A stretch of DNA of 64,000 nucleotides. It comes from an uncultured cyanobacterium. Its GTDB lineage: Bacteria; Cyanobacteriota; Cyanobacteriia; Cyanobacteriales; Nostocaceae. The position numbers were made by a program, and so were the translations under genes. The stretch lies in assembly GCA_963706595.1 (NCBI GenBank), contig OY970166.1:4352001-4416000 (forward strand). Reading direction: 5' to 3'. The notes under the pieces are model-generated. The model was not told the DNA's origin. It did no database searches and saw only the letters and a program-made list of their open reading frames with translations. Below, piece after piece: positions 17,110-27,117 of the stretch (position 1 is its first letter; each line of letters starts with the position of its first letter).

Positions 17110-17540
17110 CTAAGCTACTTCTAAAAAATCTCTGTCTGATGGATTTTCCGGGAAGAATACAGCAGGTGAAACATTGAAAAATTCCGCAAGCTTTTGAATA
17201 TGTTCAACCGTTAATTTACGCTTGCCTTTAAGTACATCAGAAACAATGGATTCCGTTTTAAAAATAGGAACTAAATCCTTTTGTTTGAGGTTCAATTCCA
17301 TAATTAAAACTTTGAGAAGTTCTATCCCATAAATATCTGGAACCAAATCCTGCTTTTCTTCGTATTCATAAATTAACATTCCCAGTAAATGCAAATAGTC
17401 TTCTTCCTCATCAGTTAGTTCGCCTTTATCAAGTAGATTATCGACCACTGCTTGAATTTTGTGTAAATCTTCTTCATCTTTTATAGGGCGTGGGGGAAAG
17501 ATGTAAGTAATTCCATGTAGCTGTTGTGATGATATAACAT
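17110..17540 (-). CDS. HigA-like HTH antitoxin/regulator, apparent frameshift near 17492-17496
   Basis: C-terminal HTH LKQKDLVPIFKTESIVSDVLKGKRKLT; upstream MLYHHNSYMELLTSF joins PPRPIKDEED if one base is added in the C/T run. Confidence 0.7.
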
Positions 17541-21060: not shown

Positions 21061-21408
21061 TTGACAAATCAAGCGGCTGAACAGTTGCGCCCCTCTGTGG
21101 AGAAGTTAGTTAAGGAAATTGTCGCAATTAACCATGCGTGGAAAGTCGCGCGTGAATTATTTGGAGAAGATTCACATCTATCTATTTCTTCACGCGATTT
21201 AAAAACCTGTTTGCAGGTTCGTTTGTTGCGAAGTTATGCACCAAAACAGGTTTATTTAATTGAGGATAAAGAATCAGAAGGTGAACCCGCTTATGGTTTA
21301 CGTCTTCGGGAACCTATAGGAAACCGCCAGTATGCAGAACATCTGCCAATACGGGTAGCGCAAAAAGTTCTCACAGATAAAGAATTAGAACAATTTCAAA
21401 AGATATAA
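21061..21408 (+). CDS. Hypothetical protein, first gene of Zorya-like operon
   Basis: 115 aa ORF (TTG start) ending 25 nt before the zorA start. Confidence 0.7.
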   Translation: MTNQAAEQLRPSVEKLVKEIVAINHAWKVARELFGEDSHLSISSRDLKTCLQVRLLRSYAPKQVYLIEDKESEGEPAYGLRLREPIGNRQYAEHLPIRVAQKVLTDKELEQFQKI

Positions 21409-21433
21409 CCAAGATAAACAAGAAGGGTGCAGT

Positions 21434-23682
21434 GTGGAAATAACGAAAGTTTGGGACATTATTTGGGATAACGGACCTTTTCATTGGACAATTGCTTTTC
21501 TGTTAGGAGTCGCAATTATTCGCGAATTTTACACAGTATGTAAGTATTTATGGCAGGATTTGGGGGCGACTAAAGCCGCTATTAAATTTTTGAGTAAGTA
21601 AAAACGGTAAAATGTAAACGTAAAAGATAACGAGTGGTTCAAAGAGCATTTCGGAACCGACGATGTAAGCATAATTCGTCAAGAGAGAGAAAAAAACGGC
21701 AAATTCTTACTAATAAAGTATCCATCTGTTTTAGTCCGCCCAGTACCTCGAACTTCTTTGCGTTTTGTGACAACTTTATGTACTGCTATCGGCGTTTTAG
21801 GAACATTTTATGGCATACAACAGGGACTTCAAGGAATTAACTTATCTACAGAAGTCCTGAACAACTGATGAGTGATAGTAAGGTGCTACTGGTAGGAATG
21901 AAAACAGCGTTCTCTACTTCCTTGATGGGGCTTGGTTCTGGTAGCTTGTTTACTTTAGTTTTGTTTGGCAGTGATTTTGTACGGCAGAAAAGGCGTGATA
22001 GTTTGCGTGATGATTTGAAGGCGATTGCCACTTTAAAAACCACAGAGAATGATAACCTTGAAGTTGCTCAAGCACTTACGCTTGTAGCACAACAATTGAC
22101 CGGATTCAAACAGCTAAAAGCCGAAGATATTGGTCAATCTGTAGGTAGGAATATAGCAGAACAGTTCGCAGGTTTAAATCAGTTGTCAGCCCAAGCTATT
22201 GGAGAATCTGTCAGACAGCAAATTTTACCACTTTTGAGAGATATATTCAATGAACAGAGAAGACTTCGAGAACTCCAAGAAAATCAGGGACAGAGAGTTT
22301 TAGAAGAACTTATTAATGATTTGCGAATTCAGGTACTAGAACCGATTGCAGACCGACTAGACAAAAGTGCCGAGTTAACCCAGCAAGCTTCCACCGCCGT
22401 GCTGAATCTACATCAAGAACTTGGCGGAATCTCTGAAAGTTTGGCAAGTTCTATCCTAACAATTCAGAACTTTCAACAAGAGACTTTGGTACAACTCCAA
22501 GGATTTGCTCATAATTTGGGAGATACTTTAAATGATTTTAAAACAGATACAAGAGGTGTTTTACAACAAACAGCCCACGAAATTAATCGAGCTGTAAACC
22601 AGAGTATTGAGGGAATGACAGCCCAACGTAGTGCTTTTAAAGCAAGTGCAGACGAAGCTGCTGATACTTTCCGAGGCATTCGAGAAGAACTGCAAATAGC
22701 ATTACAAGAACGCGCCACAGTCGAACAAGAAATGCTTCAAGGATTTGCTCACAATATGGGAAAAACTTTGAGCCAATTCAAAACTGAAACCACAGGAGTT
22801 TTACAACAAACATCTCAAGAAATTCATCACGCTGTAGTCGCAAGTATTGAGGGAATGACAGCCCAACGCAGTGCTTTTGAAGCCAGTGCAGTTCAAGCTG
22901 CTGATACTTTCCGAGGCATTCGAGAAGAATTGCAAACAGTATTACAAGAACGCGCCGCAGTTGAACAGCAGATGCTTCAAGCTACTCAAACTGGAATTAT
23001 CCGAATTCTCACCCAAGCAAATATAACCTTTCATCAGCAAACTAATACGCTAAAAACAGTGGGTGAAGAAGCCTCTGGATTGATGAATGATGCTAAGGAT
23101 AATCTTTTGGCTACTTTAGGAAATATTGACGAAAGACTCACAGCCACTCGCCAAACAGTAGAAGATGATTTGACAAGGTTTAGGGAAGAATATCAACGGA
23201 ATTTACAGATGTTTTTTGAAGAGCAAAACACCTTACTTGACGATACACTAGGCAGACAACAGGAAGGATTATCTGGAGTTGTGAACAATCTGGATCAAGT
23301 CTTCCGAGATGAATGTCAAAGACGTAGTGAATTGACTCAAGAAGTAGATGCAAGTATGAATAAAGTTCAGGCATCTGTCATAACTATTCACGAATTAGTT
23401 ATTGCTGCTGGATTAAACGATGGAGAACGACTCATACAACTACAAAATCTAGCTCGTGGTATTGGCGAGGAAGTGGAAAGAGTGGAAAACTCATACAGAA
23501 ATTTAAATCACAAATTTGACGATAGTCTTCATGCTTGGGAAGGTCATCTTCAAGGTTATATGAAAAAGACTGTTGAGTTCCAGGTGGACTTTTTCCAACA
23601 AGCAGATACTGCTATGTCTAAAGTTTGCGAAAATGTACTCAAAACAACAGAAGTGCTGCTAGAAGCAAATAATAAATACTAA
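21434..23682 (+). CDS. zorA: Zorya ZorA-like protein (MotA-like TM domain + long helical tail), 5' part interrupted in this sequence
   Basis: GTG 21434 after AAGGG; TM1 FHWTIAFLLGVAII, TM2 TTLCTAIGVLGTFYGI, TM3 GMKTAFSTSLMG; two stops at about 21599-21610 and a frameshift at about 21852; 604 aa downstream ORF is mostly coiled-coil tail. Confidence 0.8.
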
Positions 23683-23687
23683 ATTAC

Positions 23688-23799
23688 TGGCATTCCTGGT
23701 TGGAAGTATGAACAAGTTTTTGATAATATCAAAGCCCCTGTAGAGACGTGATATGTCAAGTCTCTACACCTAAATTCATACTTGGTTTCAGCCACGCCA
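23688..23799. mobile_element. MITE-like element with GTAG-REP core between zorA and zorB
   Basis: Ends TGGC..GTATGAA / TTCATAC..GCCA; core GTAGAGACGTGATATGTCAAGTCTCTAC. Confidence 0.55.
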
Positions 23800-23821
23800 A
23801 ATTACCAATGGAGTCATAAAA

Positions 23822-24475
23822 ATGGTTGATTTGAGCAGCGACGAATTTGTTGATGCAGAGATTACAGAGGATGATGATTCTAGTATTTATCTGTCTATTG
23901 GCGATTTGATGTCTGGTTTGCTGATGTTTTTTGCTTTGCTATTTATCACTGCACTACTCCAGCTTGCACAAAAGGATGTACCAAAACAGCAAGTAATTAG
24001 TAATGTTGTGGAAGAGATGCAAAACAACAATATCAATGTCAAAGTTAATCCAGATACTGGGGATATTACTATCCAAGAATCGATTTTGTTTGCTCAGGGA
24101 AGTGCCGAACTAAAACCAGAAGGTAAAGCCTTTCTACGCAGCTTTATTCCCGTTTATAGTGGGGTAATTTTCTCAAAAGAAGAATTTCAGCAGGAAGTTA
24201 GCCGTGTAGTTATAGAAGGTCATACTAGCTCGGAAGGAGATGAACAAATAAATCTGGAACTGAGTTTAATGCGGTCTGCATCAGTTCATAAATACATTTT
24301 TTCGGACATTGATTTTGATAACAAAGCACTTTTAAGCCAGAAAATACTAGCTGCTGGTCGTGGAGAAATTGAAGCTGATCAGAGTCGGGATAATCCAGGC
24401 GATCGCAAGGTGGTTTTCCGCTTTCAGTTTCGTAATGATGAGTTAAAAAAAGATATCGCTGAAACCTCATTTTAA
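23822..24475 (+). CDS. zorB: Zorya ZorB-like (MotB/OmpA-like) protein
   Basis: TM LSIGDLMSGLLMFFALLF with conserved Asp; OmpA-like EGHTS, NLELSLMRS, AGRGE, DRKVVF. Confidence 0.85.
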   Translation: MVDLSSDEFVDAEITEDDDSSIYLSIGDLMSGLLMFFALLFITALLQLAQKDVPKQQVISNVVEEMQNNNINVKVNPDTGDITIQESILFAQGSAELKPEGKAFLRSFIPVYSGVIFSKEEFQQEVSRVVIEGHTSSEGDEQINLELSLMRSASVHKYIFSDIDFDNKALLSQKILAAGRGEIEADQSRDNPGDRKVVFRFQFRNDELKKDIAETSF

Positions 24476-24488
24476 AGGATAAATAATC

Positions 24489-25883
24489 TTGAATTTTCAA
24501 TTTTCTCTTCCTTCCCTACCTGAACCTCCCCAATGTATTCCCAATCAACTAATTCAGCTTACAAGTAATTTACCAGAGCCAACAATCTCAATACCAAGTG
24601 TTGATAAAGTATTAGCAGCGATTGAACAGGGTAAAGCTGATCAAGTAAGTCAATTAGACTGGATTTACTGCATCCATGCTAAAGCACAGTGGGATAAACA
24701 AAATACTGACCGTTCTAGGGAAACATCAGCAGCCATTTGGAAGGTAGCAATTTCTAACTCATGGTTACAACATCAGCTATTGTGGCGTTTAGCTCTTTAT
24801 TCTCATCATCAGCAAGAACAAGTCTTAGCCAAGTCTCTAGCTGAATCTTTTGATATTTTTGCTAATTCTAAGTTAGTTAGTCACCTGCTACCAGTTCAAA
24901 TTGTGCAGGCGCTTTGCAGTCAACAACCAGGGAGAAAGTTAGCAAAACTTGCTTATAAGCAGCGTGTCAATCAAACTGAATTAGTTAACATAATTCGCCA
25001 AGATTTACCAGTTTGGATTCCATCATTCAGCCAATTCGTAGAAGAGATAACACCATATTTTGTAAAAATTATTTCTCCCAATCAGCAGCAAGTAACTTGG
25101 TTGTTAAGTTGCTTAAATGAAATGTCAAATAATCAGCAAATACAAGCTGTTGATTATTTACTCACCCATATTTATAATGATGTAGTAAAAAATCATTCTT
25201 TCTTAGTTGACTGGTTGCTAAATAACTACAGAAGTGGTGAAAACTGGTATGAACTTTCCGAACCAGCTAGGCAAAGGCTTCGAGAGTGGATTGGAGGCAT
25301 TAATTATGGTGATTTCCAAAGGTTAGTAGATGTCATATTAAGCCGGATAGCTTTAGAATCCTCCGAGTCAGATAGGCTAAGTAGTCGCAGAAAATTCTGG
25401 GCTAACTACAGTAACCGCTTTGAACGGCTTCGGATTTTGTTACCCAGGACATCACAAGATGCTATAGGATATCAAATTCAAGGTGATGTCGATCTACTAG
25501 AGGATGATGGTAGTGATCCTACAGAGGTTTGTATATTCGATTTTGGTGACTTGTTTGTAGTCGAATTTTTCCGTGGAAAAGGTAGTGAGATGCGCCTGTT
25601 TCCTAATAATTCCCAAACTCAACAAATCCTTTTTGGTGAATCAAGGCTTTCAGTTAAACGGATTCGCTGTCTGGGTGGCGATAAGCACGATCATGTATTT
25701 CTTTGGCAGTTTTTTTGCCGCCAATGGCTGGTAAATCAGGGAGTTAACCCAAATCCAGGAACTGAACCGTACACAAACCCAACAGCATATAAATTGCAAC
25801 AGCGAGAATACAAGCTTGAACGCTGGAAAGGAGAAATTAAGTATCTAGAACGGGAAGCTAGACTCTACTGTGATTTTCAGTAG
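24489..25883 (+). CDS. zorC: ZorC-like EH-signature domain protein
   Basis: RRKFWANY, FVVEFF, HDHVFLWQ pattern; starts 13 nt after the zorB stop. Confidence 0.75.
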   Translation: MNFQFSLPSLPEPPQCIPNQLIQLTSNLPEPTISIPSVDKVLAAIEQGKADQVSQLDWIYCIHAKAQWDKQNTDRSRETSAAIWKVAISNSWLQHQLLWRLALYSHHQQEQVLAKSLAESFDIFANSKLVSHLLPVQIVQALCSQQPGRKLAKLAYKQRVNQTELVNIIRQDLPVWIPSFSQFVEEITPYFVKIISPNQQQVTWLLSCLNEMSNNQQIQAVDYLLTHIYNDVVKNHSFLVDWLLNNYRSGENWYELSEPARQRLREWIGGINYGDFQRLVDVILSRIALESSESDRLSSRRKFWANYSNRFERLRILLPRTSQDAIGYQIQGDVDLLEDDGSDPTEVCIFDFGDLFVVEFFRGKGSEMRLFPNNSQTQQILFGESRLSVKRIRCLGGDKHDHVFLWQFFCRQWLVNQGVNPNPGTEPYTNPTAYKLQQREYKLERWKGEIKYLEREARLYCDFQ

Positions 25884-25947
25884 CTAGACACTAAAATACA
25901 AAAAATTAACTGTAGGGTGTGTTGTCGCGCAGCGCAACGCACCGTTA

Positions 25948-26110
25948 GAGGATGTTTTAAAAGTAGTTGGCTGTAATGTTAAGCACGAGTTGATCCCCCC
26001 TAGCCCCCCTTTTTAAGGGGGGAACTAGAATCAAAGTCCCCCTTTTTAAGGGGGATTTAGGGGGATCTAAAGCGTTTTGCTACTAAAAAGAGGACTCTTA
26101 AAACATCCTC
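25948..26110. mobile_element. MITE with TTA target duplication (IS5-like ends) carrying REP hairpins
   Basis: TTA-GAGGATGTTTTAA...TTAAAACATCCTC-TTA; internal cccccttttaaggggg-type hairpins twice. Confidence 0.7.
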
Positions 26111-26386
26111 TTAGGGACTAACAAATAAAAAAACATTCCAAATTTTATTGTGGGATGGGTGTCCCCACCCGTCCTTTAATCAGAGCTACACAGGCGAAAC
26201 CAGCACTATGGCTAACGCCACGCTACGCTAACGACAAGCTCAGTGACCACCTACGCGGGTTAAAAACCTTGATTTCCTGTTAGTCCGCGCAGGCGGACTT
26301 TGTTTTGTATAGCCGCGACTTCTAGTCGCCTGGACTAGGTGCAAGATGTGTTTCTATGGATTTGGACACCGCGTAAATATTTTACT

Positions 26387-26800
26387 ATGGCCAAAGACCT
26401 ATTCCACCAAGCCGTCAAGCAAGCGTTAATCAAAGATGGATGGACAATTACTAACGATCCATTAATCATTCGCATTGATCGCGTTAAACTAGAAATTGAT
26501 CTGGCTGCTGAAAAAGTATTTGCTGCTGAGAAAGATGGTCAGAAAATTGCTGTAGAAGTTAAAAGCTTTATCAATCCTTCCGCTATTAGTGACTTTCATA
26601 ATGCACTAGGTCAATTTCTCAACTATCGCTTGGCATTGGAAATGACCGAGCCTGCTCGTATCCTCTATTTAGCCGTTCCTATTGATGTTTTTAATACATT
26701 TTTTCAAGAGCGTTTTACTCAAGCTGCGATCTTGCAATATGCCATAAAAATAATAGCATATAAACCGAATACAGAGGAGATAATCGAATGGAAAAACTAG
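26387..26800 (+). CDS. xisH: XisH family protein
   Basis: MAKDLFHQAVKQALIKDGWTITNDP, IDLAAE, IAVEVKSF. Confidence 0.93.
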   Translation: MAKDLFHQAVKQALIKDGWTITNDPLIIRIDRVKLEIDLAAEKVFAAEKDGQKIAVEVKSFINPSAISDFHNALGQFLNYRLALEMTEPARILYLAVPIDVFNTFFQERFTQAAILQYAIKIIAYKPNTEEIIEWKN

Positions 26801-27117
26801 CCAAATATCGCCAAATTGTGCGCGAATTATTAATTGCTCATGCCACCCCAAACGAGCCAAATATTGAATGTCAAATCATTTTTGATACAGAACACGATCA
26901 TTATCAAATTCTAGATATCGGTTGGCAAAAGTTTAATCGCATTTATGCCTGTTATATCCATTTAGACATTAAAGACAACAAAATCTGGATTCAGCACAAT
27001 ATGACAGAAGCTGATATTGCTCAAGAGCTAGTGGAAAGAGGAGTTCCACCTTCAGATATTGTTTTAGGCTTGCATCCTCCATACAAACGTCCTTATACCA
27101 AATACGGTGTTGCCTAA
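26788..27117 (+). CDS. xisI: XisI family protein
   Basis: FDTEHDHYQ, IHLDIKDNKIWIQHNMTE, DIVLGLHPP; overlaps the xisH end. Confidence 0.93.
   Translation: MEKLAKYRQIVRELLIAHATPNEPNIECQIIFDTEHDHYQILDIGWQKFNRIYACYIHLDIKDNKIWIQHNMTEADIAQELVERGVPPSDIVLGLHPPYKRPYTKYGVA

Follow-up and report, generated by a model that had tools for sequence, protein, structure and literature searches.

This study focused on a stretch of 64,000 nucleotides (nt), referred to below as the window, from the genome of an uncultured cyanobacterium of the Nostocaceae (contig OY970166.1, positions 4,352,001 to 4,416,000). The source genome consists of one contig of 5.57 Mb and is rated 94% complete. Four co-oriented genes in the order zorX-zorA-zorB-zorC occupy window positions 21061–25883 on the plus strand, zorX being the label given here to the first gene, which specifies a protein of 115 amino acids (aa). 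From its gene content, and by analogy with characterised systems, this cassette probably represents an undescribed subtype of Zorya that lacks ZorD, is likely to be directed against phages, and has ZorC together with ZorX as its output. The features of the locus are:

21061..21408, + strand: zorX, 115 aa, conserved, without a known family; a helical hairpin and a three-stranded sheet are predicted
21434..23682, + strand: zorA, MotA-like head with three transmembrane (TM) helices and a long helical tail; broken as assembled; PDLC00597
22495..22974, + strand: tandem duplication in the ZorA tail, 240 nt (80 aa)
23822..24475, + strand: zorB, single TM helix carrying Asp28, plus a peptidoglycan-binding domain of the OmpA-like kind; PDLC00609, PF00691
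24489..25883, + strand: zorC, a 464-aa EH-signature protein, PF15611; EH motif E359/H402
25942..26116, no strand assigned: inverted-repeat element, 3' of zorC

A first-pass annotation, made from the letters of the window, had described four co-oriented genes, a zorB with a TM aspartate and an OmpA-like domain, and an EH-signature protein as the fourth gene. The coordinates and the PADLOC and Pfam matches agree with all of this. PADLOC assigned the last three genes to its models ZorA1 (PDLC00597, expect value (E) 1e-269), ZorB1 (PDLC00609, E 4e-74) and ZorC1 (PDLC00618, E 9e-190), with a type II model as the next-best match of ZorB, and held no model matching ZorX. The Pfam matches of the cassette proteins were OmpA in ZorB and EH_Signature in ZorC. 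The closest named relative of ZorC, 90% identical, comes from a metagenome-assembled genome of Nodularia.

A survey of related loci returned the same ZorD-less unit in dozens of genomes, a recurrence greater than chance. Starting from ZorC, 39 loci were collected from GTDB genomes, comprising 21 complete four-gene cassettes, five cut by contig ends and 13 that are broken or partial. The search from zorX recovered that gene from 23/401 genomes of the phylum (the present one included), spread over 11 families, and from 32 metagenome contigs; searching again from ZorC, now with the Pfam model, gave 31/401 genomes, and 11 further loci were fetched. The cassette extends beyond the cyanobacteria. 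Judged by their neighbours, most of these 32 metagenome contigs look proteobacterial, no host being named for them; Pseudomonadota account for most of the Atlas clusters that hold ZorX relatives, and one homologue lies in a record from the Deltaproteobacteria. The earlier idea of a cyanobacterial subtype therefore holds as regards a subtype without ZorD and fails as regards its confinement to cyanobacteria, since the unit also occurs in defence islands of other hosts; the locus is more general than had been supposed.

The cassette is a conserved ZorD-less unit and not the product of a one-off loss. No ZorD-like gene was found within 4.5 kb after the clade ZorC in any of 35 GTDB loci, 18 genomes of the zorX-first survey, seven metagenome contigs, eight further EH loci or the one plasmid, where loci counted as informative if 3.5 kb or more of sequence followed and profiles were run over six frames. 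These sets share a few contigs (L032/L071 and L018/L169 among them), and kin among them are not independent. The controls were type I loci in two genomes that belong to other families of this phylum (L175 and L177): they have a different ZorC and a full ZorD, and both were detected, both having helped to build the ZorD profile and one being detected independently by PADLOC as well. No Snf2 gene occurs in the window, and a single ZorE reference matched nothing in this genome; the first-pass annotation had noted that no Snf2 or HNH gene follows the four genes. Two Snf2 proteins encoded elsewhere in the genome match the ZorD models over the Snf2 half only, true ZorD proteins matching from about position 35–85 of most of these models, and a third is DpdE-like. 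With a query made from the ZorD N-terminus, neither this genome nor 17 relatives that carry the cassette gave a match, and the 23 genomes besides the two type I controls gave only Snf2-edge matches; this query is a weak test, as the second true ZorD was barely detected with it (E 4.5e-6).

The nucleases and accessory proteins of the other Zorya types were sought as well. Single ZorE, ZorF and ZorG references found nothing in this genome at E≤1e-3, and single ZorF and ZorG references found nothing in loci L001–L039, L064–L118 and L169–L179. The ZorE reference detected ten ZorE genes, all of them belonging to separate neighbouring systems. Pfam, PADLOC and NCBIfam gave no ZorF (DUF3348) or ZorG (DUF2894) match on the four cassette proteins. 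Homologous loci yielded neither zorD nor zorF/G, and the rest of this genome yielded no zorD either, points on which the first-pass annotation had made its reading depend. Two Snf2 genes near related cassettes were considered as ZorD and rejected: that of L020 is DpdE/DrmD-like, and that of L025 matches the Snf2 half only and lies about 5.4 kb upstream of zorX.

The clade ZorC is recognisably related to that of type I and differs from it in specific ways. The AlphaFold2 (AF2) model of the window protein has a predicted local distance difference test score (pLDDT) of 89, and superimposes on E. coli ZorC (8r68) with Z 15.5 and a root-mean-square deviation (rmsd) of 9.6 over 347 aligned positions, residues 35–424 onto 58–476. 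R300, W304, E359 (44/47) and H402 match the EH network of the E. coli protein. E359 aligns with E400, and H402 was paired with H443 through the equal 43-residue spacing, MAFFT placing H402 differently for the E. coli-type sequence. Four more residues, E346, R362, R369 and D401, are invariant in all 47 clade sequences, and the type I ZorCs differ from the clade at every one of them (4/4). Past residue 424 the model has a single helix (433–463) where type I has a globular C-terminal domain (487–560 in E. coli). Non-cyanobacterial clade ZorCs carry C-terminal extensions that bring them to 558–995 aa in total (L096, L100, L105, L106, L109, L111, L115 and L116). These extensions are related to one another and weakly TPR/SEL1-like, have no Pfam nuclease match, and show no similarity to the tails of type I ZorCs.

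ZorC also occurs alone. In three genomes of one genus, open frames of 483–503 aa (L170:8700 in G056, L172:8864 in G292 and L174:9605 in G324) have no zorAB nearby and no zorX in the genome, and H402 is replaced by R in all three, probably through one event. Such genes are possibly a domesticated, disarmed ZorC. The neighbour of two of them is presumably of the PAPS-reductase type.

The motor residues are conserved throughout. ZorB Asp28 aligns with Asp26 of E. coli ZorB (match to 8qyd_F, E 9e-10), and the ZorA threonine and serine align with E. coli Thr147 and Ser184 in a weak alignment (E 0.55) in which the residues were counted by hand; the ZorB Asp and the ZorA Thr/Ser ion-filter pair are invariant in 46/46 homologues. 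PMC11946911 reports the ZorB Asp and ZorA Thr147 and Ser184 to be required for E. coli type I defence. The 80-aa repeat in the ZorA tail is present in one, two or three copies among Nostocales homologues, so that tail length changes stepwise. In a tree of ZorB, the clade proteins form one branch (support 95/97) apart from four type I and six type II rows; a quick ZorA tree is less clean, the long row of type III being placed within the clade. At locus L077:7799 (G074), zorA is split by an unrelated 344-aa open reading frame (ORF), probably an insertion element.

ZorX has 141 homologues, and 154 representatives at 50% identity. Among 101 members, Q52 and H94 are invariant, N24 and K48 are kept in 100, and W27 is nearly invariant. 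It belongs closely to the unit: zorX adjoins zorA (before it) or zorC (after it) in 28/29 GTDB, 21/22 genome and 31/32 metagenome loci that hold it, the exceptions being two relics and one short contig. The position behind zorC, which is the zorD slot, is used in 5/22 and 2/32 loci and marks one branch in gene trees. The five GTDB loci that have space for zorX and yet do not carry it are all relics. Over 46 loci, the tree distances of ZorX correlate with those of ZorA (0.92), ZorC (0.93) and ZorB (0.83), values that speak for co-inheritance only, because no control gene entered the comparison. All four genes are under purifying selection, with ratios of nonsynonymous to synonymous substitution (dN/dS) of 0.27 for zorC, 0.23 for zorA, 0.11 for zorB and, over 171 non-independent pairs, 0.20 for zorX, which is comparable to its cassette neighbours.

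Little can be deduced from the ZorX fold. The AF2 model is confident (pLDDT 92), and Foldseek searches of the PDB and BFVD gave no match at E≤0.001. The best VIA-align candidate (Z 6.7, rmsd 3.0, 82 aligned) stood among helical look-alikes, none of them clear, and none of this proves a new fold. There were no matches among PDB sequences, only unnamed clusters in the Atlas, and only scattered weak matches when the 101 members were scanned against Pfam and PHROGs. The YkyB-like family PF14177, which ZorX may resemble in its motif, was absent among the best 25 of 32 weak Pfam families over these members, and its profile had no match on the zorX loci in the 401 genomes. An origin as a split-off part of type I ZorC or ZorD was considered and rejected: hhalign probabilities against single sequences were 0.1–0.2%, and no profile match to the type I tails was found, both being weak tests. 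A complex prediction of ZorC with ZorX (score 0.00, mark 0.32) counts neither for nor against their contact. Two pattern scans of IMG/VR found no ZorX, and a weak search found no longer, fused forms.

The preferred explanation is that a predicted ZorA5B2 ion motor would sense the envelope disturbance at phage DNA injection and would then bring in ZorC. The remodelled EH pocket of ZorC likely binds the injected DNA and may attack it, and ZorX likely takes the place of ZorD as the partner of ZorC. This explanation builds on the gene content and linkage, the purifying selection, the invariant motor residues and the defence-island neighbours of the cassette and, for ZorC, on the shared fold, the type I C-terminal domain that has been lost and the additional charged residues that are invariant. 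The 5:2 rotary motor, peptidoglycan sensing, recruitment through the tail and DNA binding by ZorC would operate here as inferred from E. coli type I (PMC11946911); a catalytic ZorC and the part assigned to ZorX are speculative. A bolder form of the idea, possible and on balance doubtful, is that this is a fourth Zorya architecture in which ZorC itself attacks phage DNA, switched by the motor and controlled by a ZorX of new fold. The candidate active site would be the acidic/His pocket gained by the clade (E346, E359, D401 and H402) together with R300, R362 and R369.

The distribution is defence-like: presence in 23/401 genomes, 13/34 loci broken or partial, one plasmid-borne copy (L181), and defence neighbours. 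On the metagenome contigs, ZorE of Zorya II lies directly upstream in 10/32 loci (about seven distinct), DruE3 upstream in two, DruH3 downstream in three and HsdR downstream in one. Two different ZorAB motors stand in tandem, Zorya II and then zorX-zorABC, in L098, L099/L100, L105, L106/L107 and L108. A promoter scan remained at chance level (17 found against 13.9 expected).

Several observations weigh against an anti-phage unit with ZorC and ZorX as its output. The clade ZorC is without the C-terminal domain on which E. coli ZorC depends for DNA binding and defence according to PMC11946911, where none of the four type I genes can be dispensed with. In cyanobacteria, the cassette is mostly flanked by housekeeping genes, at sites that vary, and lies outside defence islands. 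The net charge of ZorX is slightly negative (median −2), and no link of ZorX to a nuclease family was found. In genome G312 (L173:9024–13460), an intact-looking zorABC is present and zorX was not found, by a search run without a positive control; ZorX may therefore be dispensable. This locus, in which R362 of ZorC is replaced by Q, is either a three-gene form or a recent loss. Finally, zorA of the copy in the window is interrupted.

This interruption needs separate consideration. As the first-pass annotation proposed, the gene is a zorA (PDLC00597) with three TM helices and a long tail, and it is not an intact reading frame. It begins at GTG 21434, 25 nt past zorX, a start arrangement found in most Nostocales homologues, and two TAA stops (21599, 21608) and a shift of frame near 21854 break it ahead of a long ORF (21868–23682); the three hydrophobic helices fall in three separate pieces. 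In a DNA alignment with four relatives, the window is short of bases at the break sites, a pattern that would fit single-base losses in A runs. Frameshifts were seen in 10 of 170 sampled conserved genes of this genome (about 6%), 11 having been flagged and one removed as a tandem-paralogue artefact, and in 1/116 of another sample, so the zorA breaks may be assembly errors. The affected genes include two that we take to be murD and hisD. The indels, of one or two bases, lie near 1,982,900–1,984,400 of the contig (G000:C1) and in ten further genes at 3.07–4.52 Mb, and frameshift findings from this genome therefore call for caution. The long ORF shows no strong relaxation against three relatives (dN/dS 0.27–0.39). 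Real decay is favoured by the background indels, 9/12 of which were insertions and not deletions among those examined, and by the broken or partial state of 13 of the 34 fully visible related loci. No sequencing run of this strain was found, the best share of words being 0.37. Assembly error and recent decay are about equally likely.

There may be other explanations for the cassette. It could be a sensor or recruiting module that borrows its nuclease from a neighbouring ZorE, Druantia III or restriction enzyme, or from a resident Snf2 ATPase akin to the C-terminal domain of ZorD. The ZorE, DruE3, DruH3 and HsdR neighbours fit this, as do the DpdE/DrmD-like helicase that follows the cassette in L020 and the annotated helicase that follows it on the plasmid; Zorya II and Druantia III are weakly synergistic according to 10.1101/2025.09.22.677730, and the two resident Snf2 proteins match the half of ZorD that is nuclease-active in E. 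coli (PMC11946911). The partners vary between loci, however, most cyanobacterial copies have none nearby, and the resident Snf2 proteins are without the ZorD N-terminal half, similar edge matches occurring in the cassette-free genomes G376 and G032, which leaves this reading unlikely. Slightly less probable is that the effector is ZorX: the motor would release or activate this small enzyme or toxin, and ZorC would serve as adaptor or inhibitor. The polar set N24, K48, Q52 and H94, held across 101 diverse sequences, resembles an active or ligand site, and one branch has ZorX in the zorD slot; on the other hand, ZorX matches no enzyme family, an intact-looking zorABC does without it, and it was on ZorC that extra invariant charged residues were gained.

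It is improbable that the unit has been repurposed for a non-defence task such as sensing envelope stress. The housekeeping neighbourhoods of cyanobacterial copies, the solo zorC genes kept as open frames with H402R, and contigs from RNA libraries of a related organism that cover the cassette (through transcription or DNA carry-over) would all suit such a task; patchy presence, frequent decay, changing sites, the plasmid copy and the defence-island neighbours do not. Least probable, and largely refuted, is that these loci are type I relics that have lost zorD and no longer work, or have zorD elsewhere in the genome. PADLOC does file the three clade models under type I, many copies including this one are broken, and 10.1101/2024.04.05.588314 describes as truncated a V. 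cholerae cosmid with zorABC only. Against this stand the purifying selection on four genes, a deep clade without linked zorD, and the results in this genome (Snf2-domain matches only) and in 17 relatives, where the weak N-terminal query matched nothing. Given the depth of the clade and a fourth gene peculiar to it, recent loss of zorD from a type I locus, the first-pass alternative, is unlikely.

Compared with the known types, the clade works, by inference, like Zorya and yet falls outside the definition of each. With type I ZorABCD (E. coli NCTC9026; 8qyd, 8r68; PMC11946911) it shares the ZorA Thr/Ser filter and long tail, the ZorB Asp and OmpA-like domain, the ZorC fold with its R/W and EH Glu/His residues, and the order zorA-zorB-zorC. 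Unlike type I, it is without ZorD and has a fourth gene, zorX, its ZorB is on a branch of its own, and its ZorC finishes with a single helix in cyanobacteria, or with an extension of another kind in other hosts, and has the additional E346, R362, R369 and D401. Type II ZorABE (PMC11890865) has the same ZorAB motor, and type II is often a neighbour in the metagenome contigs; the clade differs in that no ZorE HNH nuclease forms part of the unit, zorC follows zorB, and ZorX is present. Type III (PMC8565338) likewise combines ZorAB with two soluble proteins without a recognised nuclease domain, one possibly encoded before zorA, but these are ZorF (DUF3348) and ZorG (DUF2894), neither of which is matched here, while an EH-signature ZorC is present. 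The first-pass statement that type III has ZorC along with ZorF/G was not upheld, no ZorC appearing in the type III example fetched or in the gene orders given in PMC11946911. The clade would thus fail the defining tests of type I (ZorD and the ZorC C-terminal domain), type II (ZorE) and type III (ZorF/G).

No more than three Zorya types are distinguished in the classifying passages of PMC11946911, PMC11890865, PMC8565338, PMC13434031, PMC12409362 and preprints, and no description of a fourth or ZorD-less type was found in a literature search that covered main texts and few subscription papers. Since PADLOC has models for the clade ZorA, ZorB and ZorC, these loci were probably collected before as type I, and the tables of Doron 2018 and of the original EH-signature paper may list some of them. 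Non-canonical gene arrangements were dropped from the published survey of Zorya in PMC11946911, so that at least this one survey left the clade loci out; elsewhere they have likely been classed as incomplete type I systems.

Around the cassette, repeats after zorC had been pointed out in the first-pass annotation, and they correspond to the inverted repeat at 25942–26116, a neighbour that may or may not belong to the system. Beyond it, at 26339–27117, lie xisH and xisI, an adjacency that is not conserved in relatives. XisH/XisI were rejected as the missing nuclease, XisH-like proteins occurring in 1/39 related loci and XisI-like proteins in 2/39. The gene 5' of the cassette is presumably flavodoxin-like. 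About 3.6 kb upstream, at 17110–17448 on the minus strand, there is a small HTH_3 protein, which we take to be antitoxin-like.

There is scant information on Zorya from bloom-forming cyanobacteria. The ZorX family is small and has a confident model for which no fold was matched, and the cassette offers a compact system of about 4.8 kb for asking what the EH-signature domain does. In the type I system that has been studied, ZorC only binds DNA, and ZorD cuts it and is essential (PMC11946911). A widespread clade under selection keeps the motor and ZorC without ZorD, and the Zorya motor would therefore be able to drive another output.

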